From Fimbriimonadaceae bacterium (GTDB lineage: Bacteria; Armatimonadota; UBA10988): 64,000 bases of DNA. The position numbers and the translations under genes were made by a program. This document shows, in pieces, positions 13,417 to 64,000 of the stretch. Below the pieces are notes generated by a model. The model was not told where the DNA came from, did no database searches, and saw only the letters and a program-made list of their open reading frames with translations. The stretch is taken from contig JADZEX010000091.1 of NCBI GenBank assembly GCA_020850355.1, forward strand, positions 35,755 to 99,754, read 5' to 3'. Every line of letters starts with the position of its first letter. Position 1 is the stretch's first letter.

Positions 13417-15423
13417 ATGACCACGCGACGAAGCGGATACCTGCTGACCGGGTTGGTGCTGCTGACCTTGCTGGCGGCCTGCGGCGGCGGGCTGGGGCTG
13501 TTCCAGGAGCCGTCCCCGGGCAACGTGCCGCCCGACCGCCTGGCCCTGATCAGCGGCGGCGGCGGGCAGTACCTGGTGCCGGTCCGGATCGGCAACCAGA
13601 CCTTCCGCCTGCTGCTCGACACCGGCTTCCAAGCGGTGTTGGTGTTCGCAGACCTGGTGCGGGCCGACAACACCGAGGTCGTCCGGACCGGCGAACGGGC
13701 CAACCTGCAGTTCGGCTCCGGGCCGCGCCGCGGCGAAATCGCCAGTGCCCCGATCGCCGTCGGCCAGCGCAGCGGCACCGCGCGGCTGCTGCTGGTGGAC
13801 AACCCCACCTCCAGTGATGATCCCTCCCTGACCTGGAAGGGCGCCGACGGGATCCTCGGCCTGCGCTTCCAGCCGGGCGCGACCGACCTCGGTAGCGCGC
13901 GCCTGGATCCGCCGCTGCTGGCCCTGGCGCCACGGATCCGGTCGATGGAGTTCGACCTGCAGCCCGGCGGCGCGACCTTGGTGCTCGGTGGCACGCCGGT
14001 CCTCGGCTCGGCCAACCCGGCCGCCGTGTTCACCGCGCAGACCACCACCGAGCTCCGCAACGACCGGATCCGCGAGAACTACGCCGACCTCGAGGTGCCC
14101 TTCCAGATCAGCTCCAGCCGCGGCGTCGCCAACGCGGAGGACCTCGACATCCTGCTCGACACCGGCGCCGCCAGCCTGCTGGTGCTCGACGAACCGCTGG
14201 CCGCGCAACTGGGCTACGACCGCGGCTCGCAGAGCTGGACCATCCCGGCCGACGAGCTGCTCGACCTGCGACTGCTGGGTCTGGCCGGTCAGATGCCGAT
14301 CACGCCGCCCTTCCAGGTCCGCGATGTGCGCGTGGCCGACCTCGGCAACACCACCTTCGACGCGGTCCTCGGGCTCGACCGGTGGCAGCAGTATGTCGTG
14401 GCCTTCGACTTCATCGACTTCTCGTTGGGCGGACCCGAGGGTACCTTCCGGTTCCTGCGCCACGACCAGATCGGCGCCGCCACCGGGGGGTGCCAGCGGC
14501 CTGACCGCCACTTCGTGGCCCTGCGCGGGCTCAACTCCTCGGGTGAGGATGGCTCGCCGGCCCTCAGCGCCGACGGTCGGGTGATCGTCTTCGAGACCGA
14601 TCGCCACGGCGGACGCGGTCTGCGGGACATCGCCTGCTACGACCGACAGGCCCAGGCATTGGTGGACATCGGGTCGATCAACTCGGAAAGCAACGACGAG
14701 ACTCCCGCGGTCTCGGGCGACGGCAACCTGATCGCCTTCACCTCCGACCGGCCGGGCGGCCAGGGCGACTTCGACATCTACCTCTTCGACGTCGCCGCCG
14801 GGTCGTTCATCGATCTGCCCGGCCTAAACACCACGGCCTTGGAGCGCTCGCCCGGCCTCAGCGCCGACGGACGCTTCGTCTCGTTCCGCTCCGAACGCGA
14901 CGCCTCAGACTCGCCGTCGGACGTCTACCTCTACGACCGCCAGACCGCCGCGCTGGTGGCGACGCCTGGACTCAACAGCGCCGCCGACGAGTTCACCAGC
15001 GCCCTTAGCCGGCACGGCGAGCGGCTGGTTTTCGAGGCGCTCAACCGGCCCGGCGACGCCGGTGGGGTCGACGTACACCTGTACGACGTCACCGCGGGCG
15101 CCCTGGTCCCGCTCTCGGCCGCGGTCAACAGCAACCGCTTCGACGCCTTCGTCAACCTCAGTGCCAACGGGCGCTGGATGACCTGCTTCAGCGAGCGGGC
15201 CGCAGCCACGCCCGGCGCTGCCGGTCGGGACATCCTGCTGGTGGACCTTGGCCGCAACGGCACTGATGGCCGGCCGGGAGTGCTGGTGGACCTGCCGGGC
15301 CTGAACTCGGCCTACGAGGAGTCGTCCTCGTCGCTGAACGACGATGGCACGCTGATCGCCTTCGCGTCGAGCCGTTGCGGCGGCTCGGGTGGCTTGGACA
15401 TCTACCTCTACCAGCGCGACTGA
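13417..15423 (+). CDS. lipoprotein with retropepsin-like aspartyl protease domain fused to TolB-like PD40 beta-propeller repeats
   Basis: Track ORF; lipobox LLAAC; two DTG motifs (LLLDTGFQAV, ILLDTGAASLLVLD); repeated PD40-like units (SPALSADGRVIVFETDR, TPAVSGDGNLIAFTSDR, SPGLSADGRFVSFRSER). Confidence 0.65.
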   Translation: MTTRRSGYLLTGLVLLTLLAACGGGLGLFQEPSPGNVPPDRLALISGGGGQYLVPVRIGNQTFRLLLDTGFQAVLVFADLVRADNTEVVRTGERANLQFGSGPRRGEIASAPIAVGQRSGTARLLLVDNPTSSDDPSLTWKGADGILGLRFQPGATDLGSARLDPPLLALAPRIRSMEFDLQPGGATLVLGGTPVLGSANPAAVFTAQTTTELRNDRIRENYADLEVPFQISSSRGVANAEDLDILLDTGAASLLVLDEPLAAQLGYDRGSQSWTIPADELLDLRLLGLAGQMPITPPFQVRDVRVADLGNTTFDAVLGLDRWQQYVVAFDFIDFSLGGPEGTFRFLRHDQIGAATGGCQRPDRHFVALRGLNSSGEDGSPALSADGRVIVFETDRHGGRGLRDIACYDRQAQALVDIGSINSESNDETPAVSGDGNLIAFTSDRPGGQGDFDIYLFDVAAGSFIDLPGLNTTALERSPGLSADGRFVSFRSERDASDSPSDVYLYDRQTAALVATPGLNSAADEFTSALSRHGERLVFEALNRPGDAGGVDVHLYDVTAGALVPLSAAVNSNRFDAFVNLSANGRWMTCFSERAAATPGAAGRDILLVDLGRNGTDGRPGVLVDLPGLNSAYEESSSSLNDDGTLIAFASSRCGGSGGLDIYLYQRD

Positions 15424-15867: not shown

Positions 15868-17181
15868 TCAAGGCTGCACCGCCGGCAAGGTCGGCAGGAC
15901 GACCCCGCTGAGGTCGCTCCGGGAGACCGCCGCGATGGCCCGCCACCAGGCCACTTGCGAGGCGGGAGTCCGCTCGCAGTGCGGGCTGAAGACAATCACC
16001 CGACCTGCGCCGTACTGCCCCAACGCGACGGCCGCCCTGGTGTTGGTGCGAGTCTTGTCGGAAACATCGGCACCGTAGGTGGCCAAGGTCCGGAACGGGG
16101 GCAACGCGGCCACGCCGGCCGGCTCCATCGCCAGCGGGCCGCCGTGGTAGGTGGTGTCGTGGCGGCCGGCGCAGCCGAGCACCTGCTCGCCGTCGGCGGT
16201 GAACCGCAACGGCACCACCGCACCGCCGCTGCCGACGGGCATCTTGGCGTTGATCACGCCGAGAAACGACTCGCGGTTGCAGGAGGCCAGGAACGCGCCG
16301 GCGCAGACCCCCACCAGGCCGCCCCCGCCGCGCACGTAGTCACGGACCCGCTGCAGACCGGCCGCGCCAAGGGCCTTGGCCTGCTCGCTGGCCAGGCCGC
16401 CGCCGAAGATCACCGCATCAAACTGCGACAGCGCCCCGGCCTGCAGATCCTCGGGCCCGCACAAGTGCAGCTCCAGCCAGGGCAGGTGGCTCACCGAGCG
16501 GGTCAGCCAGTAAGGGTCCCGGCCGATCGAGCTGCTCGCGCCGGGGCCATCGTAGATCGCGCCAAGGGCCCGCTGGCGGCGCTGGGCCGGGTCGGTCGGC
16601 AGGCACTGCTCCGGGCTGGCCGTCGCGGCCAGCACGCCGAGCCGGGAGAGCAGCCCGTAGACGGCGTGGCGGAACTGCCGGACGCGCCAGTAGATCCGGT
16701 TGTCGGGGTCGCGCGTGGCGGCCGTGGTCACCACCAGCACCGCGGCGCCGCCGGCTGCCGCCCGCAGCCGTTCGCGCTCGCCGGCCGCCAGCGCGCCGAC
16801 CTGCCACCGCCGTTCGGGCTGCGGCACCAGGCGGTTCAGATCGCTCGCCACGTCGCGCAGCAAGGCCTGTTGAGCAGGGTCCGACCCTTCCAGCGTGGCA
16901 CCGCTGGCGGCCGGGATGTGGCTCCGCCACTCGAAGGACTCCCGCAGCACCACCACCAGCGCGGCGGCCGCACTGCCGGCAGCGCGCGGCTGCCACGGGT
17001 CAGGCTGCACTTCCAGCCGCCCACCCGCGCCGGGCCAGGTGGCGATCTGGCGGGCCGCCAGGGCCGCCGCGGGGCCATCGCTTAGCGGGTCGACCAGCAC
17101 CCGCACCAGCGGCGCAGCCGGCAGGGCCGGGCTGAGCAGGCAGCACAACAGGATCGACAGATACTGGCGGTAGCGCCCCAT
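15868..17181 (-). CDS. secreted protein with class I glutamine amidotransferase-like (BPL_N/ThuA-like) domain
   Basis: ATG at 17181 with GGAG upstream; signal peptide MGRYRQYLSILLCCLLSPALPAAP; motif FGGGLASEQAKALGAAGLQRVRDYVRGGGGLVGVCAGAF. Confidence 0.4.
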   Translation of the reverse strand: MGRYRQYLSILLCCLLSPALPAAPLVRVLVDPLSDGPAAALAARQIATWPGAGGRLEVQPDPWQPRAAGSAAAALVVVLRESFEWRSHIPAASGATLEGSDPAQQALLRDVASDLNRLVPQPERRWQVGALAAGERERLRAAAGGAAVLVVTTAATRDPDNRIYWRVRQFRHAVYGLLSRLGVLAATASPEQCLPTDPAQRRQRALGAIYDGPGASSSIGRDPYWLTRSVSHLPWLELHLCGPEDLQAGALSQFDAVIFGGGLASEQAKALGAAGLQRVRDYVRGGGGLVGVCAGAFLASCNRESFLGVINAKMPVGSGGAVVPLRFTADGEQVLGCAGRHDTTYHGGPLAMEPAGVAALPPFRTLATYGADVSDKTRTNTRAAVALGQYGAGRVIVFSPHCERTPASQVAWWRAIAAVSRSDLSGVVLPTLPAVQP

Positions 17182-17338
17182 CCAACAGCTCCGATCGGCG
17201 GTCTGCGATGTGCCCATTGTAGCGCCACTGGCGGCGTCCAGGACCATTGGAGTCCTGCGGCGCTTGCCGCAAGCGGCCTGCAGGTGGCAAACTGTTACAC
17301 AGTGGGGAGGTGCCAGGCTGGTTTTGGGGAGGGCCACG

Positions 17339-19252
17339 TTGGCGAGGTGCTTTCCGGGGGAGCTGCCACAGAGTGTGCGGACGCTGCCGGGCCGGGCGGC
17401 CGAGATCGCCCTGTTCGACCGGCTCCAGGCGCTGCCCGAGCCGTTCCAGGTGTTCTACAGCGTGCGCTGGCAAGGATCTGGCACGCGGGGCAGCCCGCGC
17501 GACGGCGAGGCCGACTTCGTGGTCGCGCACCCCGAGCATGGCATCCTGGTGCTTGAGGTGAAGGGCGGGCAGGTCGCCTACCAGGGTAACTCCGCGGGTT
17601 GGGTCAGTCTCACGCCGTTAGGGCAGGCCCGCCGTGGCTCGCGCGATCCGCTCCGCCAGGCCAGTGAGTCGCGCCACGTGCTGCTGGCGCACCTCTCCAC
17701 GAGCAAGGGCTGGCGACAGGGCCGCTTCACGATGGCCTACGCCGTGGCGTTGCCGGACATCGTCCTGCCGCCAGGTCTTGGCTTGCCGCCGAGTGCGCGG
17801 CCAGAGGTGATGTTGGACAGCGTCGCCCTGGCCGATCCGCAGGCAGCCCTGGAACGTGTCTGGCAGTTCTGGCGCAACCCGGCCACCGACCAGCCGCTGG
17901 GCGCGGACCGCCTGCAGCGTCTGGTCGAGCTGCTGGAAGGGCAAGTGCGGTTGCCGCTCGCTCCCGGGCGGCGGGCCTTCGACCGGCGGCTGGTGGAGCA
18001 CGTCTTGGCGTTCGTCGCGGAGCACCGCTCCGGCGCCGCGGCGGTGCGGGCGGTGGGCGCCATGCTGGGTCTGCTCGGTGTGCTGCTGGCCGGGGCCGTC
18101 GAACTCCGCACCGACCCACTGAAGCAGCATCCCAGCCTGGCCGCTCTCGACCTGCCGCCGGGCACGCGCCTGCTGATCACCGCCCGCCGCCACGGGCAGC
18201 AGCAGTTGGCCTGGATCCGCCCCGACGGCCGTGACTTCCGGACGCTCCGCCGAGCGGCCGCAGGACACTATCTGGGCGGCGCGGCCCTGGAGCCCGGCGG
18301 CCCGCGCCTGGTGTGCTGCGAGGTCCGCGAAGACAACCAGAGCGGCGCCCTGCTGGTGCTGGATCTGGCCAGCGGGAGCGCAAGCCGCCACGCCCCCAGC
18401 AAGGTGCCCAGCGAGACCTGTTGGCTGCCGGGCGGGCGAGCGGTCTACTTCACCGCAACGCCGCACCCCCTCAACACGGTGAAGCTGGACCTGCGCACCG
18501 GGCGTGAGACCGCGGTCACCGCGGTCTGGCAGAGCAACGGCCCGACGCTCTCACCGGATGGGCAGTGGCTGCTCCGCCAGCAGGGCGGGCGCGAAGACGA
18601 CCGCCTGTGGGTCGGTCCGGCCGACGGCCCGGAGTCGCGGCCCTTGCTCAACCTGACCCGCGCCTACGCCCCAGCGTGGAGCCCCGACGGTTCGCAGATC
18701 GCGTTCGTCGCCAGCCCCACCGGCAGCTCGGTCAACCGGCTCTACATCGCCAACGCCGACGGCTCCGAGCCGCGCCAGTTGACGGCTTGGACCGGCTCCG
18801 ACAGCCATCCTGCGTGGTCGCCGGACGGGCGCTGGATCGCCTTCTCCGCCGACCATCAAGACGACGGTGAGATCTACCTGGTTCGCCCCGACGGCAGCGC
18901 GCTGCGGCGGCTGACGTTCAACCGCGAGCTGGACGGTCAGCCGCGCTGGTGGCCGGCGGCGCCGTGGCGGCCAGTGGTCACGACGGTGCAGATCGCAGCC
19001 GATGCCGACCGAATCCGGCCCGGGCAGGTGGTGCACCTGTGGGCCACGGCGTGCGGCCGCGCCGGTGCGGTGCTGACCTGGCCGCGCTTCGCTTGGCGCG
19101 CCGTCAACGGTGGCGGCGTGCTGCGGGTCACTGGCCCGCGCACCGCGGAGTTTGTGCCGGGCAACGCGCCGCTGGACTACGACCCGCAGATCGCCGCGAT
19201 CAACGTCCGGTCGGCCACCATCCGCCTGCCCTGGGCCCGCCGCGGCCACTAG
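17339..19252 (+). CDS. NERD-domain protein with predicted TM segment and C-terminal PD40 beta-propeller repeats
   Basis: NERD signature GEADFVVAHPEHGILVLEVKGG; hydrophobic segment AVGAMLGLLGVLLAGAV; PD40-like repeats (PAWSPDGSQIAFVASP, PAWSPDGRWIAFSADHQDDGEIYLV). Start uncertain: TTG 17339 after GGGGAGGG, or ATG 17210. Confidence 0.55.
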   Translation: MARCFPGELPQSVRTLPGRAAEIALFDRLQALPEPFQVFYSVRWQGSGTRGSPRDGEADFVVAHPEHGILVLEVKGGQVAYQGNSAGWVSLTPLGQARRGSRDPLRQASESRHVLLAHLSTSKGWRQGRFTMAYAVALPDIVLPPGLGLPPSARPEVMLDSVALADPQAALERVWQFWRNPATDQPLGADRLQRLVELLEGQVRLPLAPGRRAFDRRLVEHVLAFVAEHRSGAAAVRAVGAMLGLLGVLLAGAVELRTDPLKQHPSLAALDLPPGTRLLITARRHGQQQLAWIRPDGRDFRTLRRAAAGHYLGGAALEPGGPRLVCCEVREDNQSGALLVLDLASGSASRHAPSKVPSETCWLPGGRAVYFTATPHPLNTVKLDLRTGRETAVTAVWQSNGPTLSPDGQWLLRQQGGREDDRLWVGPADGPESRPLLNLTRAYAPAWSPDGSQIAFVASPTGSSVNRLYIANADGSEPRQLTAWTGSDSHPAWSPDGRWIAFSADHQDDGEIYLVRPDGSALRRLTFNRELDGQPRWWPAAPWRPVVTTVQIAADADRIRPGQVVHLWATACGRAGAVLTWPRFAWRAVNGGGVLRVTGPRTAEFVPGNAPLDYDPQIAAINVRSATIRLPWARRGH

Positions 19253-40099: not shown

Positions 40100-40169
40100 C
40101 GGGGGCTGCTCCCTGCGCCCAACGGACTGGTCGATGTGCTAGGGTGACGCCTGGGAGGGGTGGCGGCCG

Positions 40170-43100
40170 ATGCGGTGGGAGTTCCAGTTACTCGGGGGCC
40201 TCGCGGCGCGCTGCGGCGAGCGGGAGGTGGCGGAGTTCCGGAGCAGCAAGGGGCGCGGCGTCCTGGCTCGGTTGCTGCTGCAAACCGGCGAGCGCCTGCG
40301 GCGGGCGGTGGTGGCCGCGGAGTTCTGGCCCGAGTCCGAAGCTCGCAGCGCCCTCAACTCGCTGACCACCGAACTCTCGAAACTCCGGCAGGCGCTGCAC
40401 TGCGACGCGGTTGAAGACCGGCGGCTGCTGCCGCCGGGGCAGCGCGAGATCTGGATCGACGCGGGCCTGGTCCGCACCGACCTGCAGGCGTTTGAGCAGA
40501 CGGTGGCCGAGTTCGACGCGTTGGGACGGCGGGGCGAGCCCGCCGAGCTGACCTTGGCACGGTTGCGGTTGTGCGGCGGAGAGCTGCTGCCAGAGCTCGA
40601 GGGTACCTGGCTGACCAGCCGCCGGACCGCTGTGCGGCAGGCCTGGCTGCGGCTGGCGGCCGGCGCGGCCGAAGGTCTGCGGAGCGCCGGACGGATGTCC
40701 GCCGCGGCGGCGTTGGCGCACCAGGCGGTGCAGTACTACCCGCTCGACGAACCGGCGCTGCGCTTCGCGATGCGGTTGCTCGCCGATCTGGGTGAGACGG
40801 CTGCCGCGTTGCGACAGTACGAAGCCCTGCGAGCCCGGCTGCACACGGGCTATGGCCTGGCTCCGGCGGCCGAGACCAGCGACCTGGCAGCCGACCTCGG
40901 CGCCGACCTGGCAGCCGGAGCCGACCAGCGCGCCGAGGAGCTGGCCGCGGCGGCGACTCAGCAGATCGCGCACGGCCGACTCCGAGCGGCCGAGCTGGGG
41001 CTCCGGCGGGCTCTCGTCACGGGTCTCCGAGGCCCGGCGGCAGCACAGGTACAGCGGCAACTGCGTGCCGTGTCGCGGGCGCTCCCGCCGGTGGTCTGGG
41101 AGCGCGCCACCGGGCGAACCGTGGTGGACGGTGTGGTGCGTCGCGACGGCGCGGTGCTGCTGTGCCACCCGGCCGGGAGGTGGTCGTGCTGGCGGACCGG
41201 GCAGGCAACACCAGTGGTCGAGGGCCAGTGTGGCGACGGCCTGGTCCTGGGGTCCTGGCTGGGCCGGTCCGCCGAGCTGGTGTTGGCGGCGGCCACCGGT
41301 GAGTTGCACTGGCAGTCGTTGGCGGCGTCGCGGCCCCGGGCCACGGCGCATGTCCCAGGGCCACCGCTGGCGCTGACCACCTCGCCGGACCGGCGCTGGG
41401 CGGCAGTCGGCCTGGAGCGCCACGGCGTAGTGCTGTGGGACCTGGCGCACGACGAGCTGTACGAACTGCCGGCGATCACACGAGCAGACTGCCTCGCCTT
41501 TGCGCCGAACGGGGCCCGACTGGCGGCCGGAGCCCGCAGCGGTGAGCTGACCGTCTGGGAGCTGGCGACCGGGCAGGCGGTGTGGCAGACCCAGCAGCCG
41601 GGCGCTGTGCGCGGGCTGGCCTGGTCGCCAGACGGGTTGTTGCTGGCCACGGCGGGCGGCGATCATCGGGCGCGGATCTGGCAGTGGGACGGCCGTGGTG
41701 GGGCCATGCAGGAGCTGCCACATGGGGACCGGGCAGTGCACGCCGTGGCCTGGCTGGCGCGCGGCGAGCGACTGGTCAGCGTAGCCGGCGACGGTCGTCT
41801 GCGGAGCTGGCCTGGGGCCACCGCGGCGGGCCAGGCGACGGTGGTCAGCCTGGGCGGCGACCTGACGCGGCTCTGGGGCCATCCAGATGGGCACCACGTG
41901 TTGGCGTTGACCGCGCATGGTGTCGCCCACCTGGTGGACCTGGCCGCGGAGCCGGCGGCGGACCTCGAGGCCGTGGGAGAGGGGCTCGCGGCAGTCGGCT
42001 TTGTCGGCACGCGGGGCGATCTGCTGTTGGTTGAGGCGGCCGGCAGTCTCCGACAACTCGACCTGATGGCCGCCGGACCGGACCGGGCGCTGCTGCATGC
42101 ATCCGGCTGCCACGTGGCGCGCGCCGTATGGTCGCCGGACGAGCAACGCCTGGTGACCGCCGGCACCGACGGCGGCGTGCGAGTCTGGAGCGCCGCCGGT
42201 CGACTGGAGCAGAGTTGGCAACTGGCCGAAGTGGTGCGCGAGGTGGTCTGGGACCAGTCCGGGGGCCTGCTGGCGCTGACCGCTGAGGGAGAGCTGGTGG
42301 CGCTGGCCCGGGACGGCCTGGCCCGCCGTGACCACCTGCCTGGAGCGCCGATGCGGCACCTCGAGCTGCGTCCGGCCGAAGGCCTGTTGCTGGCCGCCAG
42401 TGGCACTGCGGTGCGCTGGTGGAGCTGGCCGACCTTTCGCCTCCAAGGTGGCTTCGAGGTCGCCGGCCACTGCCGCGCGGTCGCCCTGTCGCCAGACGCC
42501 CGGGTGGTCTACGTGGCGGAACTGGGTGGCCGCGTGACCGCCCGGCGCCGGACGGGCGAGCTGCTGTGGGAGCGGGCGCTGGACCGGGCGCCGTGGCGCC
42601 TGGTGGTGACCGCGTCAGGTCTGCTCGTGGCCGGCACCTCGCCGGCGGTGCTGCTGGCAGCGGCCGACGGCGAACCGGTCGGGGCGGGCTGGCCGCATCC
42701 GGGCGAGTGCCACCAGGTCGCCCTTGACCCAGCCCAGAAACGTGTGGCGCTGACGACCAGCGCAGGGCCGGTCTTGGTGGTCGATCCGGCCCGGCCACAG
42801 CAGGCAGCGGTGGTGCTGGAACGCCGCCGATGGGGTCTGTGGAGCGAGTTCACGGCAGCCGGCACGCTGCTGGCCGCCGGCGACGATGGCGAGGTCCGGG
42901 AGTTCTGTACTGCCAGTGGCCGGCTCTTGGTCCCGCCCCGCCCGGTTCCGGCGCTGGTCCCCTTTCTGAGCCAGCGCCAGGCCGACGGCCAGATCACCGC
43001 CACCTGCGGCGATGGTCGCGTCTACTTCTGGCACGCTGCCGCCCACGGCCAGGCGGCGCCCGCGGCGGCGCCTGCGGCGACTCCCGTCGCACGCGCCGTT

Positions 43101-43796
43101 TGGCACGAGCGGCAGGCTGCCAACTGCGCCCAGGCCGGGTTGCCGGCTGGCGCGTGGTGGCATCTGCAGCGCGCGCTGCGAGCGCAGCCCACGGAGGCCT
43201 GGAACTGCTGGCAAGCCGCCCTGGCCGCCTGGGAGGTGGGCCGCCCGGATCGGACCGCAGCCCTGCTGCGCCGCGCCAGTGCCCTCACCAGCGATCCGCG
43301 CCCCGCGGCTGATGCGCTGCTGTTGGCTGCCTGGCGCGACGGTGCTGGGGCGGTCGCTCCCGCGGCCGAGCGGCTGCTCGCAACCGTGACAGCGCTGGGC
43401 CGCAGTCCGCTCGCCTGGCAGGCGCTCCGCCGCTGGCTGGTGATTGCCGAGTGGGCTGACCTGGTACGAGCACTGCCGGCAGACCTGCTGGAGAGCGCAC
43501 CGCACCTCGCTTCGGCGGCCCGGTTGGAGGTGCTGGCGGCCTGGCACCTGCGCTGTCAGCGGAATGTCCTGGCTGCCGCCACCATCGACCGGTGCTGGTC
43601 TGCCGCCCGCCATCAGCGCTCGCTCTGGGCGTCCGCGGTACGGGCCTTGGCGCTACAGCGCCTGGGCCGCTGCGAAGGTGGGCTAGCTGCCGAGCATGCC
43701 CGGGCCCTGGCCGTTGCGACCGCCAGCGATCCCGTCTGGCCGCACCGCATCGAGGCTGCCTGTTGGCAGCGCGAGCTGACGCTGGCCGGCGGCTGA
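40170..43796 (+). CDS. SARP-family (OmpR-type wHTH plus BTAD) regulator fused to WD40 repeats and C-terminal TPR-like region
   Basis: Track ORF, 1208 aa; GGGAGGGG upstream; N-terminal MRWEFQLLGGLAA...ALRFAMRLLADLGETAAALRQYEALRARL (BTAD); WD40 units (LATAGGDHRARIWQW, VTAGTDGGVRVWSA); no P-loop seen. Confidence 0.65.
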   Translation: MRWEFQLLGGLAARCGEREVAEFRSSKGRGVLARLLLQTGERLRRAVVAAEFWPESEARSALNSLTTELSKLRQALHCDAVEDRRLLPPGQREIWIDAGLVRTDLQAFEQTVAEFDALGRRGEPAELTLARLRLCGGELLPELEGTWLTSRRTAVRQAWLRLAAGAAEGLRSAGRMSAAAALAHQAVQYYPLDEPALRFAMRLLADLGETAAALRQYEALRARLHTGYGLAPAAETSDLAADLGADLAAGADQRAEELAAAATQQIAHGRLRAAELGLRRALVTGLRGPAAAQVQRQLRAVSRALPPVVWERATGRTVVDGVVRRDGAVLLCHPAGRWSCWRTGQATPVVEGQCGDGLVLGSWLGRSAELVLAAATGELHWQSLAASRPRATAHVPGPPLALTTSPDRRWAAVGLERHGVVLWDLAHDELYELPAITRADCLAFAPNGARLAAGARSGELTVWELATGQAVWQTQQPGAVRGLAWSPDGLLLATAGGDHRARIWQWDGRGGAMQELPHGDRAVHAVAWLARGERLVSVAGDGRLRSWPGATAAGQATVVSLGGDLTRLWGHPDGHHVLALTAHGVAHLVDLAAEPAADLEAVGEGLAAVGFVGTRGDLLLVEAAGSLRQLDLMAAGPDRALLHASGCHVARAVWSPDEQRLVTAGTDGGVRVWSAAGRLEQSWQLAEVVREVVWDQSGGLLALTAEGELVALARDGLARRDHLPGAPMRHLELRPAEGLLLAASGTAVRWWSWPTFRLQGGFEVAGHCRAVALSPDARVVYVAELGGRVTARRRTGELLWERALDRAPWRLVVTASGLLVAGTSPAVLLAAADGEPVGAGWPHPGECHQVALDPAQKRVALTTSAGPVLVVDPARPQQAAVVLERRRWGLWSEFTAAGTLLAAGDDGEVREFCTASGRLLVPPRPVPALVPFLSQRQADGQITATCGDGRVYFWHAAAHGQAAPAAAPAATPVARAVWHERQAANCAQAGLPAGAWWHLQRALRAQPTEAWNCWQAALAAWEVGRPDRTAALLRRASALTSDPRPAADALLLAAWRDGAGAVAPAAERLLATVTALGRSPLAWQALRRWLVIAEWADLVRALPADLLESAPHLASAARLEVLAAWHLRCQRNVLAAATIDRCWSAARHQRSLWASAVRALALQRLGRCEGGLAAEHARALAVATASDPVWPHRIEAACWQRELTLAGG

Positions 43797-59653: not shown

Positions 59654-60096
59654 GGGAGGTCCTCCCAGGGATCGATCAGGGCCAGGGCCAGGTGCGCCAG
59701 CAGCCAGGCCTCGAGGGCGTCGTCGGAGGGCAGGGGCGGCGCCGGCTCGGCGGTGATCTCGGCCGCGGTCAGCTCCTCGGCGGTCGGGACTGGCACGACG
59801 GCCAGCGGATCGGAGTCGGGCCAGGGCAGCAGCGTCGCCACGAGGTCAGCCTGCTCCGGCCAGGCCTGGTCTGGTTCGAGGACCAGCCAGTAGCTATCGG
59901 CTGCGGCTAGCGCCGCGGCATCCGGGTCGCGCAGCACCGCCAGGGCGTCGTTCAGAGCCTGCTGCCGGGCCTCGGCGAAGGGCCCTCGGCGGGCCGCCTT
60001 GTAGCACCGCGCAAACGCCGCCTCGACCTCGGCGAGGCTGGCCCGACGGGCCACGTTGAGGCGCGCCGCGGGGCTGTCGAGGGGTTCAGGGAGCAT
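59650..60096 (-). CDS. small hypothetical protein, degenerate J-domain-like N-terminus (no HPD)
   Basis: ATG at 60096 preceded by GGAGGTG; overlaps the upstream TPR gene by 11 nt and the downstream GrpE-like gene by 4 nt. Confidence 0.35.
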   Translation of the reverse strand: MLPEPLDSPAARLNVARRASLAEVEAAFARCYKAARRGPFAEARQQALNDALAVLRDPDAAALAAADSYWLVLEPDQAWPEQADLVATLLPWPDSDPLAVVPVPTAEELTAAEITAEPAPPLPSDDALEAWLLAHLALALIDPWEDLP

Positions 60097-63000
60097 CACC
60101 CACCTCCGGGGCGGCGAGCGCTGCCGCCCGTTCGCGCAAGCGGCGGGCGGCCTCCTGGCGATCCGCCGCCTGCGCCGCCAGGCGCGGGTCGAGGCTGACG
60201 GCCCGCCCGATGAGCTGCTGCAACCGCTCGAACGTCCCGACCATCTGCACTGCCTGGTGGGATCGCGCGGCGCCCGCCGGCGCGGCGGCGAGGGCCTGCA
60301 ACTCGGCCAGCCGGGTGCGGCCCAGCTCGTCGGCCTGGCTGAGGAGCGCAGGCGCGAGCCGCTCGGCGACTTCGCGGCGGAGCTGCCGCGCACTCGCCAC
60401 CAGCTCCGCCGGCAGCTCCAGCGCCAGCGCCTCGTCACAGCGGGCCAGCGCCTGGTCCAGCCGGGCGACGGCCTCGCCCTCGCGGGCCAGGTTGCCGAGG
60501 GAGGTGACCTGATGCAGCCAGGCCTGGGCGAGCGGCACCGGCTCCAGCGCGACCTTGGCAGCGTCGCGCGCGGCGGCGAAGAGGCCCAGCCAGTCGCCGG
60601 CGACACGCCGTTCGCGGCAGGCGTCCAGCAGGCGCTGCTGCAGGATCAGCCGCTGCTCCCGGACCGCCACGGCACGGTCGGGCTGGCGGAGCTCCAGGCC
60701 GGCCAGAAACCCGCCCGCGGCGGCGGCGCCGTGCGCCGTGGCCAGCACCGCGGCATGGTCCAGTTGCACGGCCAGGTCGTCGCCGGCCTGGCGCAGCAGC
60801 AGTTCGGACCGCTGCACCGCCTCCTCGCCGCGGCCGAGGTCGAGCAACGGCTGCAGGCTGGCGCGCAGCGCCTCGTGGTGGTCCGGCCGCAGCAGCAGCA
60901 GGGCCTCCAGATGAGCAACCTCGGGCGCCGGCTGGCCGAGCCGCCGGTAGAGCCGCGCCAGCCGATCGTGGGCGGCCGCGCGGACGGCCACCGGCTCGCC
61001 GGCCGACAGCGCCAGCTCCCGCGCCGCGGCGGCGGCCGCCAGGTCACCGCTGCGCTCCGCCACGATGGCGCGGTTGTGCCAGACGGCCGGTGAGGCGGGC
61101 AGGGCCTCCAAGGTCGCGGCGGCGGCGGCCCCGTCGCCGGCCGCCAACTGGGCAGCGGCCCGCAGGTTGCTGGCGGCAGCGCTCTGGTGTGCGGCGAGCG
61201 CGGCCGCGGCCGCGGCGACCTGGCCCTCGCGCAAGTGCGCGCCGGCAGCGGCCTGCGCCAGCGGTTCGAGCGCCGTCGGCAGGGCGGTCAGCGGGCCGCT
61301 CAAGACGGCCTCGACGGCCGCCAGCGCCGGCTCGTGGGGACCTCCCCGCAGGGGGCCGGCTGCCAGGGCAAAGCGGCTGGCGTCGCCCTGGCGGGCCGCC
61401 AGGCCGGCCCAAGCGAGCTGCAAGGCGGCGTGCTCACGGCAGCGTCGCAGCGCCTGCGGCACGGCCACCGCGGCCGTGTGCGGACGCGCGGGCAGCAGCG
61501 CCAGGACGGCCGCCGGGTTCAGCCGTAGGGCCTCTGGCAGCGCGGCCCAGGCCGCCGGGTCGTCGCCGGGCAGGCTCCAGAACCGCACCCAGGCTGCCGC
61601 CTCGGCGTACCGCGCCGTGACCTCCAGCGCGCCGACGGGCTCGCCACGCCGGCACCGCTGGCAGGCGGCCGTCAGCGCCAGCAGGCCGCGCAGGTCGTCC
61701 GCCAGGGCGGTGTCTAGCGCTGGCGCCAGGGCCTCGAGCAGCGTGCTGGCCGCCGGGTCGTCGGTGTCGAGGGCGGCCGCCACCCGGCGCAGCTCGAGCC
61801 GCCGCCGCTGGTCGCGCGTGAGCTGCGGATGCCACGGCCGGAGCTCCTCCGGCGGCGCCGTGCGGACCGCCAGCTCCAGCCAGGCTGCCCGCCAGCCGGG
61901 CACGTCGGCCGGGCTTGGGGAGTCGCTCGCCAGCAGCCGCCACGGCGTGGCGCTCTGCGCCAGCCGGTGGGCCGCGGGCAGCGCGTCGGCGGTGGCCGCG
62001 GCCAGCGGCGCCAGCGCCAGGCGCTGGCGAGCGGGCGACAACAGGTGGTCGAGCCCCGCGGCCAGCGCTGGCGACGTCCCGCTGCCCTGCGACGACCGCC
62101 AGAGTGCCTGCAGCGCGGTCAAGGTCGGGTGATCCCCCGCTGGCGGCGGCTGGTCGCGCTGCCCGGCCTGCCAGGCGACCAAGAAGAGGCGGGCCGCGAC
62201 CATCGGGTCGGCCGGTTGGCGGGCCTGCAGTTCGCGCAGCAGCGGCAGAGCGCGCGGCCGGTCGTGCTGCCAGGCATGCCGGGCCAGACAAGCCAGTAGC
62301 GGTGCCTGCTGCTCCGCCGGGGCGAGCTGCCAGAGCCGGTCGTCGAGCCGGGGTGCCCACTCGCCGGCCAGCACAGCCGCCGCCAGCCGGGCATGGTTGG
62401 CGGCGTCGCCGGAGTCGAGCTGCAACACCCGCCAGGCCGCCTGTTCGGCGACCGCGCCGCCGCAGCCAAGCAGGTACCGTGGCCAGCGCGGTTCGTCGGG
62501 CTGGGCGGTGGAGGCGGCCGCGACGACCGCCGCTCCCGCTGGCGTCGGTGGCTGTGCGGCGACCCAGGTGGCGGCTCGCAGCAGGAGCTGCTCGCGCTGA
62601 AGTCCGAGCGGCCGCAGCTCGGCGTCGCTGGCGCGGCTGGCAGACCACCAGAGCGCGGCGGCCACCGCCCGGTCGACGGCGGCGTCGCCGCGCACCGTGG
62701 CGGCGGCGAGGAGTAGGGCGCCGCTGTTGTCGCCGGCCTTCCAGGCGGCCTGGTAGGCTGGCAGCGCGGCGGCGCGATAGCGGCCGGTGCGGGCGTCGCA
62801 GCGGGCCACGCCGAGCTGGCCGCGGGAGGTCGCGCCCAGCGCGGCGAAGACCTCCCGGCTGACTTCGTCGTGGCGGCCAAGCAACTCCAGCTCGGCGGCC
62901 AGGCGCTCGACCACCACCGGCTGGCGGTCCTGGCCTTCCTGGAACCGGCGCAGCAGCAGCCGGAAGCCGTCGGCCGAGAGCTCGGGAAGCTGCCGCCAGG

Positions 63001-63493
63001 CGGGCACCAGCAGCCGCCAGAGCTCGTCGCGCGGGGCGGTGAGGTAGGCGCGCTCGACCCACGGCACACCCCACGCGGGCACCTCGCCGCGGCGGCGCCA
63101 GAGTTCGAGCAGACCGTGCTGCGGGCGCGGATCGTCGGGGTCGGCGACCATCGCCTGCCGCCACCACTCCTCGGCTGCAGCGTCCTGGCCGTCTCGTCCC
63201 GCCAGTTCGGCGAGCGCGCAGAGCGAGCCGACATCGCCGGGTGCCAGCTCGTGGGCCTGCCGCAGCCAGGCCGCCGCTTCGCGACGCGGGTCGCTGCCGC
63301 GCCGAGCCGGCAGGGCCAGCACCAGCTCGGCCGCCAGGCGCAGCAGTCCGAGGTCGCGCGGGCTGGCGGCCAGCAGGCGCCGGCAGCAGGTGAGGGCCGT
63401 GGCCTGGTCACCGGCCGCCAGGGCAGCTTGCAGCCTGGCCGTGTCGGCGCCCGGCCCGCTCTGGCTGCCACCGCGCCACCACCTCCGACCCAT
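60086..63493 (-). CDS. large Ala/Leu-rich TPR-like repeat protein
   Basis: Track ORF, 1135 aa; helical-repeat-like composition; no catalytic motif recognised. Low complexity makes boundaries less certain. Confidence 0.5.
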   Translation of the reverse strand: MGRRWWRGGSQSGPGADTARLQAALAAGDQATALTCCRRLLAASPRDLGLLRLAAELVLALPARRGSDPRREAAAWLRQAHELAPGDVGSLCALAELAGRDGQDAAAEEWWRQAMVADPDDPRPQHGLLELWRRRGEVPAWGVPWVERAYLTAPRDELWRLLVPAWRQLPELSADGFRLLLRRFQEGQDRQPVVVERLAAELELLGRHDEVSREVFAALGATSRGQLGVARCDARTGRYRAAALPAYQAAWKAGDNSGALLLAAATVRGDAAVDRAVAAALWWSASRASDAELRPLGLQREQLLLRAATWVAAQPPTPAGAAVVAAASTAQPDEPRWPRYLLGCGGAVAEQAAWRVLQLDSGDAANHARLAAAVLAGEWAPRLDDRLWQLAPAEQQAPLLACLARHAWQHDRPRALPLLRELQARQPADPMVAARLFLVAWQAGQRDQPPPAGDHPTLTALQALWRSSQGSGTSPALAAGLDHLLSPARQRLALAPLAAATADALPAAHRLAQSATPWRLLASDSPSPADVPGWRAAWLELAVRTAPPEELRPWHPQLTRDQRRRLELRRVAAALDTDDPAASTLLEALAPALDTALADDLRGLLALTAACQRCRRGEPVGALEVTARYAEAAAWVRFWSLPGDDPAAWAALPEALRLNPAAVLALLPARPHTAAVAVPQALRRCREHAALQLAWAGLAARQGDASRFALAAGPLRGGPHEPALAAVEAVLSGPLTALPTALEPLAQAAAGAHLREGQVAAAAAALAAHQSAAASNLRAAAQLAAGDGAAAAATLEALPASPAVWHNRAIVAERSGDLAAAAAARELALSAGEPVAVRAAAHDRLARLYRRLGQPAPEVAHLEALLLLRPDHHEALRASLQPLLDLGRGEEAVQRSELLLRQAGDDLAVQLDHAAVLATAHGAAAAGGFLAGLELRQPDRAVAVREQRLILQQRLLDACRERRVAGDWLGLFAAARDAAKVALEPVPLAQAWLHQVTSLGNLAREGEAVARLDQALARCDEALALELPAELVASARQLRREVAERLAPALLSQADELGRTRLAELQALAAAPAGAARSHQAVQMVGTFERLQQLIGRAVSLDPRLAAQAADRQEAARRLRERAAALAAPEVGDAP

Positions 63494-63549
63494 CGGCTGC
63501 CCTTCCGTGGGGATCCTAGCCGGCGGCTGCGGCGCCTGTCAAACGGGCC

Positions 63550-64000
63550 TCAGGCGCCCGCCGCGGCGTGCCACATCGTGGCATCGGGCAGGCGCCCGCT
63601 GCTGAAGTCGAGGCCGCACGCCTCGCAGGCCGGCTGGGCAGGGTCGTCCAGCGGGCTGCCACAGTGGCCACAGCAGGGCTGCTCGCGGTCGGCCACCGTG
63701 GCGAGGGTGACCCGTCCCAGCAGGTAGGGCCGGAAGACCAGGCCACAGAAGCTGCAGGCGGTGGCTCCATCGTTGAGACCGGCGCCGCACCAGGGGCAGC
63801 TCTTGAGGGTGCTCCAGCGGGCGGCCAGGTTCGCGAGCTCGTCGTCGGTGAGCTGCTCGCTGAAGTCGGGCTCCGGCTCGGGCGGTGGCGGGGGAAACTG
63901 CAGCTCGCGCTGGCAGCCCAGGCAGACCGTCGCTTCCCAGGCCAGCGGCCGCCCGCAGGCGCCACAGGCGGTGCTGGTCTGGCCGGCCGCCTCGACCTGC
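63550..64000 (-). CDS. zinc-ribbon domain protein with multiple CxxC pairs, 5' end truncated by window end
   Basis: Own translation of a minus frame running off the window: ...TACGACGRPLAWEATVCLGCQ...CPWCGAGL...CSFCGLVF...CCGHCGSPL...CEACGLDF; stop at 63550..63552. Confidence 0.45.
   Translation of the reverse strand, partial: QVEAAGQTSTACGACGRPLAWEATVCLGCQRELQFPPPPPEPEPDFSEQLTDDELANLAARWSTLKSCPWCGAGLNDGATACSFCGLVFRPYLLGRVTLATVADREQPCCGHCGSPLDDPAQPACEACGLDFSSGRLPDATMWHAAAGA

Follow-up and report, generated by a model that had tools for sequence, protein, structure and literature searches.

The gene at 17339-19252 (+) of the 64-kb stretch of DNA analysed here (the window), which comes from an Armatimonadota bacterium, raises the question of what a NERD nuclease-related domain does when it is joined through a membrane segment to a β-propeller. 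An earlier note on this DNA had pointed out this domain order without recognising it as a described family, and the literature on NERD in combination with a transmembrane (TM) segment or a β-propeller gave nothing describing such an architecture. To our knowledge, almost every bacterial nuclease effector characterised so far is a soluble protein that responds to a trigger within the cell. Joining a nuclease by a single TM helix to a propeller in the periplasm would connect the envelope directly to nucleic-acid cleavage.

Gene and domain composition

The coding sequence starts with TTG and, including the stop codon, encodes a protein of 637 aa. A Shine-Dalgarno-like sequence, GGGGAGGG (17326-17333, +), was read directly from the DNA, and this GGGGAGG(G) stretch, located 5-6 nt before TTG 17339, is the candidate ribosome-binding site for that start. 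Since the NCBI protein P0001 (637 aa) is 100% identical to the translation from TTG 17339 and the ortholog P0002 (which begins MARMFP...) aligns from residue 1 of the same product, the coding sequence was set to 17339-19252. The open frame that contains it spans 17210-19252 (+), and a longer ORF from GTG 17210 was dropped on these three grounds. The GC3 of the gene (0.88) is like that of the adjoining genes and no GC anomaly was found. Neither a sigma-70-like promoter upstream of the gene nor a + strand terminator was detected.

The first 231 residues form the NERD module, which begins with a NERD or PD-(D/E)xK nuclease core (residues 1-125; 17339-17713, +). The NERD assignment of the earlier note is borne out by the Pfam profile PF08378, which matches residues 18-119 with 34.7 bits (cut-off 22.1, E 2.8e-8) and gives 42.2 bits for P0002. 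The family was compared by means of a 148-sequence alignment consensus, a script for Walker A motifs and hydropathy, and a PDB profile search. The signature GEADFVVAHPEHGILVLEVKGG occupies residues 56-77, and the positions that are invariant across the 148 family members (D59, F60, G68, E73, K75 and G77) are all present. D59 (codon 17513-17515, +) is the "D" of PD-(D/E)xK, and E73-V74-K75 (codons 17555-17563, +) form the ExK motif. E22 (codon 17402-17404, +), the acidic residue of helix α1, is conserved in at least 90% of the family. The positions of these catalytic residues agree with the model elements H17-30, E53-64 and E68-74, and the core was modelled as a restriction-endonuclease-like αβββαβ fold. 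E22, D59, E73 and K75 are also kept in P0002, and these residues suggest that the NERD module is catalytically intact and the nuclease apparently active. An α/β extension with a juxtamembrane helix (residues 126-231; 17714-18031, +), 64% identical to that of P0002, completes the module.

A functional precedent for these residues is found in ZwsA (Zowangsin), a NERD RNA endonuclease of P. aeruginosa with VHS, DUF647, NERD and S4 domains. Substitutions of its residues E535, D567, E580 and K582 impaired antiphage activity, and the K582A variant was used as the inactive control when RNA cleavage was assayed (bioRxiv 10.64898/2026.04.06.716636). By motif spacing, this E/D/ExK tetrad corresponds to E22, D59, E73 and K75 of the query. 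ZwsA is compared here by description, and the accessible part of that description mentions no TM segment or propeller, unlike the architecture of the query.

The protein has a single hydrophobic peak, at residues 232-256 (AVGAMLGLLGVLLAGAVEL), with a mean Kyte-Doolittle value of 2.07 over 19 residues. It is situated between NERD and PD40, is flanked by R237 and R257, and contains the predicted single TM helix (residues 233-256; 18035-18106, +). The segment was modelled as a helix, albeit with low pLDDT, and its equivalent in P0002 has a Kyte-Doolittle value of 2.27, in line with the TM segment predicted in the earlier note.

The TM segment is followed by a TolB-like PD40 β-propeller (residues 278-531; 18170-18931, +) with about six blades, as counted from the DSSP strands of the model. 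The PD40 profile PF07676 matched with 75 bits (cut-off 20.9), the propeller was modelled with an AF2 pLDDT of about 85-95, and a Foldseek comparison of the model with TolB structures gave E-values of about 1e-13 to 3e-13. The TolB-like repeats noticed earlier are thus confirmed at the level of both profile and fold. The TolB equivalog TIGR02800, by contrast, scored 93.2 bits, below its cut-off of 343.15, with the best stretch covering propeller positions 238-332 of 418; the six-bladed PD40 fold is similar to that of TolB, whereas the query is without the TolB N-terminal domain and signal peptide and is membrane-anchored with a cytoplasmic domain. Another PD40 protein, a lipoprotein, is encoded in the window at 13417-15423, and a local duplication of it was considered as the source of the propeller and rejected, as the similarity (28 bits) is at the level of the repeat motif only.

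A C-terminal Ig-like β-sandwich (residues 549-621; 18983-19201, +), which does not appear in the earlier note, was seen in the AF2 strands (model residues 318-390). It was modelled with moderate confidence (pLDDT about 60-80), has no Pfam match and is 45% identical in P0002; the propeller+PKD structure 1l0q was among the Foldseek matches. Taken together, the profile matches, the models and the hydropathy make the architecture NERD-TM-propeller highly probable.

P0002, from another Armatimonadota metagenome-assembled genome (MAG), is colinear with the query at 49% identity. The full-length homolog search was dominated by PD40 proteins and contained this one true ortholog, after which the N-terminal module was searched alone. 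No second ortholog was found in searches that covered 1.84 billion representative proteins, 185,579 species genomes and, in addition, 241 million metagenome records, which agrees with the earlier note, where the architecture was not recognised as a described family. A scan of the GTDB species genomes gave 55 loci, with the TM region covered in the known ortholog alone, and a scan of metagenome contigs gave 67 loci, all with at most 31% identity over the NERD part. Conservation statistics are thin because only two members are known. Such extreme rarity, the count being two orthologs plus an unrelated singleton (P0276, described below), could point to an evolutionary accident or an assembly artefact, namely a chimeric ORF without selected function. 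However, the architecture is colinear in two MAGs, and for the ortholog it recurs in three contigs that were assembled independently. The frame is intact with the GC3 given above, the catalytic residues have been conserved, and fold prediction is confident. This explanation is therefore exceedingly improbable and already largely refuted.

Origin of the NERD module

An exhaustive phmmer search with the N-terminal module returned 2492 matches, essentially all of them proteins of about 550-580 aa that consist of NERD and an SF1 helicase; 994 of the 2492 lie at E<=1e-10. Over their first ~200-220 residues, members of this NERD-SF1 helicase family (PADLOC RTasNERD-Hel PDLC03813, NERD+UvrD C3a187) are homologous to the query with 33-46% identity, and they have in common with it the motif MAxxxPxxLP, the motif DGEADF...EVKGG and the extension after the NERD core. 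In agreement with this, the PADLOC profile RTasNERD-Hel matched residues 1-201 with 79 bits at profile positions 1-188 of 519, while positions 189-519, the helicase part, remained unmatched. The NERD-SF1 helicases carry the Walker A motif GxAGxGKT and the motif VDEGQDF, whereas the query is without the whole helicase half; no helicase Pfam match was found in the protein, and the ORF of the ortholog (L005) contains no GxxxxGK[ST] motif.

The replacement can be located by comparison with the 54 other genomic relatives. In nearly all of them Walker A is found within residues 205-244; it is missing from four, two of which lie on truncated contigs, and none of the 54 has a TM segment. The predicted TM helix of the query begins about where Walker A of these relatives falls, and the helicase half has been swapped at ~205-244 for the TM helix, the PD40 propeller and the β-sandwich. 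[quoted passage not shown]

This ancestry carries an association with defence. DrmA/DrmB-like matches were found beside the NERD-helicase in 88 of the 128 fetched loci, and some of the relatives are encoded on plasmids, immediately after the genes for DrmA and DrmB (DUF1998) and adjoining DarT and transposases. Among the closest NERD-helicases, P0147 and P0149 lie on contigs too short to show a context, and no gene was recorded with exactly the product P0148. NERD-helicases of cluster 485 go together with UG34 reverse transcriptases (Mestre et al. 2022, PMC9226505). While NERD-helicase loci are often linked to DrmA-DrmB in a DISARM-like manner, the gene studied here has neither DrmA/DrmB nor reverse transcriptase neighbours, and tblastn with DrmA and DrmB of locus L127 as queries detected no match in the 64-kb window or at the ortholog locus.

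Predicted topology, possible mechanism and genomic neighbourhood

We infer an N-in/C-out topology with an extracytoplasmic propeller. The numbers of K/R residues on either side of the helix are equal (3 vs 3 and 4 vs 4), and the positive-inside counts are accordingly neutral. In this arrangement, residues 1-231 would remain in the cytoplasm as the NERD module, residues 233-256 would cross the inner membrane once, and the PD40 propeller and the Ig-like β-sandwich would face the periplasm. The ectodomain might bind an envelope or extracellular ligand, such as a peptide or a protein and possibly a phage or damage signal, and binding could alter the oligomeric state via the TM helix and switch on the nuclease at the inner membrane face. 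The activated NERD domain might then cut nucleic acid, either incoming foreign DNA or RNA or that of the host in a stress or abortive response.

We favour such a ligand-gated, membrane-tethered nuclease tentatively, with a likelihood somewhat short of even. It is consistent with the NERD and PD40 domains and the match to RTasNERD-Hel, with the retention of E22, D59, E73 and K75 at a spacing like that of the ZwsA tetrad, with the ancestry among helicases often encoded behind DrmA-DrmB, and with the colinear ortholog, in which conservation is highest over the NERD module (62-64% identity vs 38% for the propeller). This last difference is not specific evidence for a sensor, however, since periplasmic domains often diverge faster. 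Further points against the gated nuclease are that two members only are known, that the positive-inside counts are neutral and that a nuclease fixed at the membrane reaches few substrates unless they come to it.

A single-pass layout of this type has precedents among PD40 proteins, which also count in favour of the gated nuclease. The nearest PD40 relatives include wHTH(Trans_reg_C)-TM-PD40, zf-HC2-TM-PD40 and Pkinase-TM-PD40 proteins, and the order of an N-terminal domain, one TM segment and a C-terminal PD40 domain was found in P0014, P0018, P0028, P0042, P0116, P0092 and P0102. The same wiring thus occurs in ToxR-type regulators, anti-sigma factors and Ser/Thr kinases with PD40 ectodomains, but the output differs, being NERD in the present case, and the ectodomain of the query has an additional Ig-like domain. 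No Trans_reg_C, zf-HC2 or Pkinase matches were found in the NERD-TM-PD40 protein. By analogy with these sensors, and with the catalytic residues intact, the transmembrane sensor or effector suggested in the earlier note is plausible.

The presence of several wHTH-TM-PD40 proteins among the closest PD40 relatives would also suit a membrane-tethered nucleic-acid binder, i.e., a ToxR-like regulator or DNA anchor without regulated cleavage, and PD-(D/E)xK folds sometimes serve as binding modules. However, the catalytic residues retained in both orthologs argue for catalysis over mere binding, and neither a recognisable target operon nor an upstream motif common to the gene and the P0002 gene was found, which makes a mere binder quite improbable.

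The genes around the NERD-TM-PD40 gene belong to housekeeping and carbohydrate metabolism (GNAT, BPL_N-like, MetH/MTHFR, GlgC, alkaline phosphatase, GH5 and GH57), and no PADLOC match was obtained for the two neighbours that were tested. The gene has no operon partners. The earlier note had raised the idea of a conserved neighbourhood or a defence island, and neither was found: the window and the contig of the ortholog share no neighbour. Because the neighbourhood is not common to the ortholog, it offers no guilt by association, and together with the lack of DrmA/DrmB in the window it counts against the gated nuclease. The possible link to defence raised in that note has indirect support from the ancestry of the NERD module among helicases often associated with DrmA-DrmB, but none from the gene's own surroundings. 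A specific form of the gated nuclease, a one-component immune or stress receptor whose ectodomain senses phage adsorption, a phage protein or envelope damage and triggers NERD against incoming nucleic acid or for abortive infection, would be distinctly unlikely.

A context without defence genes and a TolB-like propeller are also what would be expected of an envelope-coupled housekeeping factor. The propeller would dock to a periplasmic partner such as a Pal-like lipoprotein or peptidoglycan, and the cytoplasmic NERD domain would contact or trim nucleoid DNA or RNA, linking the envelope or cell division to nucleic acid. Non-defence roles are indeed known for membrane-anchored NERD proteins. SmdA of S. 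aureus, in which a TM helix at the N-terminus precedes a cytoplasmic NERD-like domain, functions in cell morphology and division and, according to its authors, is without several residues that are among the best conserved in NERD domains (PMC9040797), and TbLrRP1/2 are described as single-TM NERD proteins of the trypanosome ER membrane involved in LSU rRNA processing (PMC12702573). By description, SmdA and the query both place a NERD-type domain at the cytoplasmic face via one TM helix, but in SmdA the TM helix comes first and there is no ectodomain, whereas the query has an intact N-terminal NERD domain, which keeps all the conserved residues, and a large ectodomain after the helix. Besides this reversed domain order, the NERD relatives of the query are linked to helicases and often to DISARM rather than to division genes, and the TolB equivalog score of 93 does not come near the cut-off of 343. 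Since the protein was found in two MAGs only among the 185,579 species genomes, it does not serve a core function. We thus consider the housekeeping factor fairly unlikely.

Independent analogues of the fusion

The gated nuclease gains further support from the recurrence of a similar design in P0276 and P0315. The metagenomic singleton P0276 consists of NERD, a TM segment and a Ycf48/PSII_BNR-like propeller, and a search for its family gave no relatives of its architecture. Its NERD domain is 34% identical to that of the query, and the two proteins have in common a NERD domain of the same family, a single TM segment and a predicted extracytoplasmic propeller; P0276 differs in its propeller family and its long Pro/Ser-rich linkers. 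In the tree, the query grouped with P0002 in 100/100 bootstrap replicates and P0276 with NERD-helicases in 96/100, while the query and P0276 were sisters in 0/100. The fusion in P0276, judging from this tree, arose independently of that in the query. With at least two independent occurrences, the defence-associated NERD half appears able to detach from the helicase and rejoin a membrane sensor.

The P0276 gene is located 4 kb from a gene for a CoiA competence-type nuclease, and a nuclease at the cytoplasmic face would be well placed for entering DNA. The protein might act on DNA as it passes the inner membrane during transformation or conjugation, tethered by its ectodomain to an uptake or envelope structure. 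However, the proximity to CoiA belongs to a different protein, the singleton P0276, genes for competence, pili or conjugation were not observed next to the gene in the window or in L001, and such a role overlaps mechanistically with defence; a DNA-uptake nuclease is very improbable.

The family is tiny and comes from uncultured Armatimonadota, and its practical value is modest until a phenotype is available. Were the protein the immune or stress receptor considered above, it would belong to a broader class of effector-TM-propeller proteins, so far unrecognised, that includes NERD-TM-PD40, NERD-TM-Ycf48-like and TIR-TM-Ycf48-like forms. The last of these is represented by P0315, in which a TIR domain and a Ycf48-like propeller are joined by a TM segment.

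Gene, ortholog and domain architecture

The NERD-TM-PD40 protein (637 aa) is encoded at 17339-19252 on the plus strand, within an ORF called at 17210-19252 (+). Its start codon at 17339 is TTG, and an SD-like GGGGAGGG at 17326-17333 (+) ends 5-6 nt before it; the GC3 of the frame (0.88) is similar to that of adjacent genes. The identical NCBI entry, P0001, is labelled only [quoted passage not shown]. The sole ortholog, P0002 (635 aa, Armatimonadetes groundwater MAG), is colinear with it over the full length, starting at residue 1 (MARCFPGELP / MARMFPNQLP), and the alignment needs two gaps. No further orthologs were found in 5.8 billion clustered proteins, 1.84 billion representative proteins, the GTDB species genomes (185,579) or 241 million metagenome records. 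The architecture has been maintained across 49% sequence divergence between the two proteins, identity being highest in the NERD module (62-64%), 38% in the propeller and 45% in the sandwich. A non-functional chimera, countered by the ortholog and by three independent assemblies, is largely excluded. The architecture is real, very rare and lineage-restricted.

The earlier note had proposed a NERD domain joined through a transmembrane segment to a PD40 propeller. Both domain calls were confirmed by Pfam (NERD, 34.7 bits vs a curated cut-off of 22.1; PD40, 75 bits vs 20.9). The single hydrophobic segment between them was supported by the Kyte-Doolittle profile, which has only one peak, AVGAMLGLLGVLLAGAVEL, at residues 232-256 (mean 2.07, flanked by R237 and R257). 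P0002 has an equivalent peak (2.27). The NERD signature GEADFVVAHPEHGILVLEVKGG corresponds to residues 56-77. All residues invariant in the NERD family alignment (D59, F60, G68, E73, K75, G77) and those conserved in at least 90% of it (E22, G56, E57, H64, Q107) are present. In the NERD RNA endonuclease ZwsA, changes at E535/D567/E580/K582 weakened antiphage activity (bioRxiv 10.64898/2026.04.06.716636); judged from motif spacing, this tetrad would correspond to E22, D59 and E73-x-K75. In the anatomy of the module, McrC, Shedu SduA, NucS and many type II enzymes are named beside the NERD residues. The protein belongs to the NERD / PD-(D/E)xK family by every testable criterion, and its NERD module looks catalytically competent. 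With these residues in place, a membrane-tethered binder or regulator that does not cleave seems improbable.

The AlphaFold2 model of residues 232-637 (pLDDT 78) contains a helix at 233-256 (low pLDDT), a beta-propeller at ~278-531 (pLDDT ~85-95, ~six blades counted from DSSP strands) and a beta-sandwich at ~549-621 (pLDDT ~60-80), which the earlier note did not mention and which has no Pfam match. The modelled helix is compatible with, rather than proof of, a transmembrane helix. The top Foldseek match was TolB (E 3e-13); S9-peptidase propellers came next, together with 1l0q, an archaeal propeller+PKD structure. TolB itself was rejected as an identity, as TIGR02800 scored 93 bits vs an equivalog cut-off of 343, matched propeller positions alone, and the TolB N-terminal domain is absent. 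Taken together, the protein very probably consists of a NERD module, one hydrophobic helix, a TolB-like propeller and a beta-sandwich.

Relationship of the NERD module to NERD-helicases

Searched exhaustively with phmmer, residues 1-231 gave 2492 matches among 1.84 billion representative proteins, P0002 being first at 63% identity. Below it, essentially all of the best 150 were proteins of ~550-580 aa, and the consensus of these best 150 relatives has the NERD module followed by G.AG.GKT ... VDEGQDF, a sequence hallmark of SF1/UvrD-like helicases. This assignment was confirmed by profile matches to PcrA, helicase IV, SLFN11 helicase and GajB. The PADLOC NERD-SF1 helicase profile RTasNERD-Hel, which fits the description of a NERD-helicase cluster adjoining UG34 reverse transcriptases (PMC9226505), aligned residues 1-201 with model positions 1-188 of 519 (79 bits). 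Among 55 loci from the 185,579 species genomes, the match reached through the TM region in P0002 alone. Nearly all other ORFs of these loci carry Walker A at residues 205-244 (four lack it, two of them on truncated contigs), and none has a hydrophobic segment; the TM helix and ectodomain thus took the place of the helicase at about this position. Membership of the NERD-helicase family was rejected, the helicase being absent.

On Azospirillum and Rhizobium plasmids (L127:1-8686, NZ_CP029836.1; L128:1-8668, NZ_CP088106.1), the conserved gene order is UvrD - DrmA - DrmB(DUF1998) - NERD-helicase, with the NERD-SF1 helicase (~560 aa) last, and PADLOC scored DrmA at ~700 bits, DrmB at ~290 and RTasNERD-Hel at 174-198. 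The operon adjoins DarT, Tn3 and integrase genes and looks like a DISARM-like variant with a NERD-helicase where a nuclease is expected. NERD-helicases also follow DrmA/DrmB in loci L029, L032, L033 and ~85 more of those fetched, lying directly downstream in the loci inspected. When the plasmid proteins served as tblastn queries, 73 of the 128 fetched loci had both genes and 15 more had only DrmB, proportions that are not an unbiased census because the loci were gathered by motif. This linkage makes a defence origin of the NERD module likely. Chloroflexota NERD-helicases, the NERD-TM-PD40 protein and P0002 are solo, without DrmA/DrmB, and assignment of our protein to a DISARM-like locus was rejected on this ground. 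The defence origin concerns the NERD module; a defence role of the derived membrane protein does not follow from it.

Propeller fusions and a possible gated nuclease

The first hydrophobic segment lies past residue 40 in 15 of the 118 best PD40 matches. Pfam confirmed the layouts Trans_reg_C (wHTH)-TM-PD40 (P0014, P0018, P0028, P0042, P0116), zf-HC2 anti-sigma-TM-PD40 (P0092) and Pkinase-TM-PD40 (P0102), indicating that single-pass signalling proteins repeatedly use the PD40 propeller as an extracytoplasmic module. These ToxR-type, anti-sigma and kinase receptors have the same layout as the NERD-TM-PD40 protein, but a nuclease output is undescribed for them.

In a singleton, P0276 (L004:456-2402), NERD (22-141) is followed by a TM helix (285-303) and by a propeller of the Ycf48/PSII_BNR type. 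A neighbour-joining tree built from NERD modules (100 bootstraps) placed our protein with P0002 in 100/100 replicates and P0276 with two NERD-helicases in 96/100; our protein and P0276 were sisters in 0/100. The NERD module was thus fused to "TM + propeller" at least twice. Relatives of the Ycf48-like propeller include P0315, with the layout TIR_2-TM(168-186)-propeller, and zf-HC2-TM-propeller proteins. P0276 and P0315 hint at a wider class in which a cytoplasmic effector is fused through one TM helix to an extracytoplasmic propeller. The neighbours of P0276 include CoiA and HTH genes.

The NERD-TM-propeller design is suggestive. The topology would be N-in/C-out: an N-terminal signal sequence is lacking, the first residues belong to the fold and are conserved in relatives that are cytoplasmic, and a signal peptide or TM segment typically comes before the PD40 modules in those relatives that were examined. 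A ligand on the ectodomain may regulate the nuclease via oligomerisation, by analogy with other single-pass receptors and as would be expected for PD-(D/E)xK enzymes working as dimers. The substrate would be nucleic acid close to the membrane; processing of DNA entering the cell is a very improbable role. We propose this gated-nuclease mechanism only tentatively.

Membrane-anchored NERD proteins are already known, namely SmdA (PMC9040797) and trypanosome TbLrRP1/2 (PMC12702573). SmdA differs in that its own single TM helix is N-terminal and only a short stretch is extracellular (PMC9040797). A housekeeping role coupled to the envelope or to division, like that of SmdA or TolB (PMC9040797), is rather unlikely. 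The architecture still appears undescribed, as first suspected: in literature pairing NERD with transmembrane or beta-propeller, no paper on NERD with a propeller or ectodomain was found.

Genomic neighbourhood

Directly upstream and divergent lies a BPL_N/GATase1-like gene (15868-17337, minus strand; class I glutamine-amidotransferase-like, 44 bits). The 5' end of this ORF has probably been called too far out: an internal Met followed by MGRYRQYLSILLCCLLSPALPAAP, a stretch resembling a signal peptide, points to a start near 17181, in which case ~157 bp of divergent intergenic DNA would separate it from the NERD gene. A GNAT gene also flanks the NERD gene; MetH-like/MTHFR and GlgC genes lie downstream, and alkaline phosphatase, GH5, GH57 and GAF-PAS histidine kinase genes further out. 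GC content is unremarkable. The P0002 contig encodes Uma2, DUF362, GFO_IDH_MocA, pectate-lyase-like, Band_7 and PAS kinase neighbours. The conserved neighbourhood or defence island raised in the earlier note was not borne out: tblastn found no neighbour common to the window and the P0002 contig, the 64-kb window has no homolog of DrmA or DrmB, and PADLOC gave no match in the two neighbours tested. The NERD gene therefore stands alone.

A predicted lipoprotein 2 kb upstream (13417-15423, plus strand; 668 aa, N-terminus ending LLAAC) has Asp_protease_2 at 54-85, a weak clan AA match at 237-274 and then PD40 repeats, an unusual combination of an aspartyl-protease-like (retropepsin-type) part with a propeller. 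It was rejected as propeller donor, its similarity to our protein being repeat-level only. At 60001-64000, GC is 0.77-0.79 vs ~0.70 elsewhere and long ORFs overlap on both strands; one of 1150 aa (60086-63538, minus strand) has only weak TPR matches. The same genome encodes a further regulator-propeller fusion, a 1217-aa protein at 40143-43796 (+), with BTAD (SARP-type transcriptional activator) at 112-250 followed by WD40 propellers.
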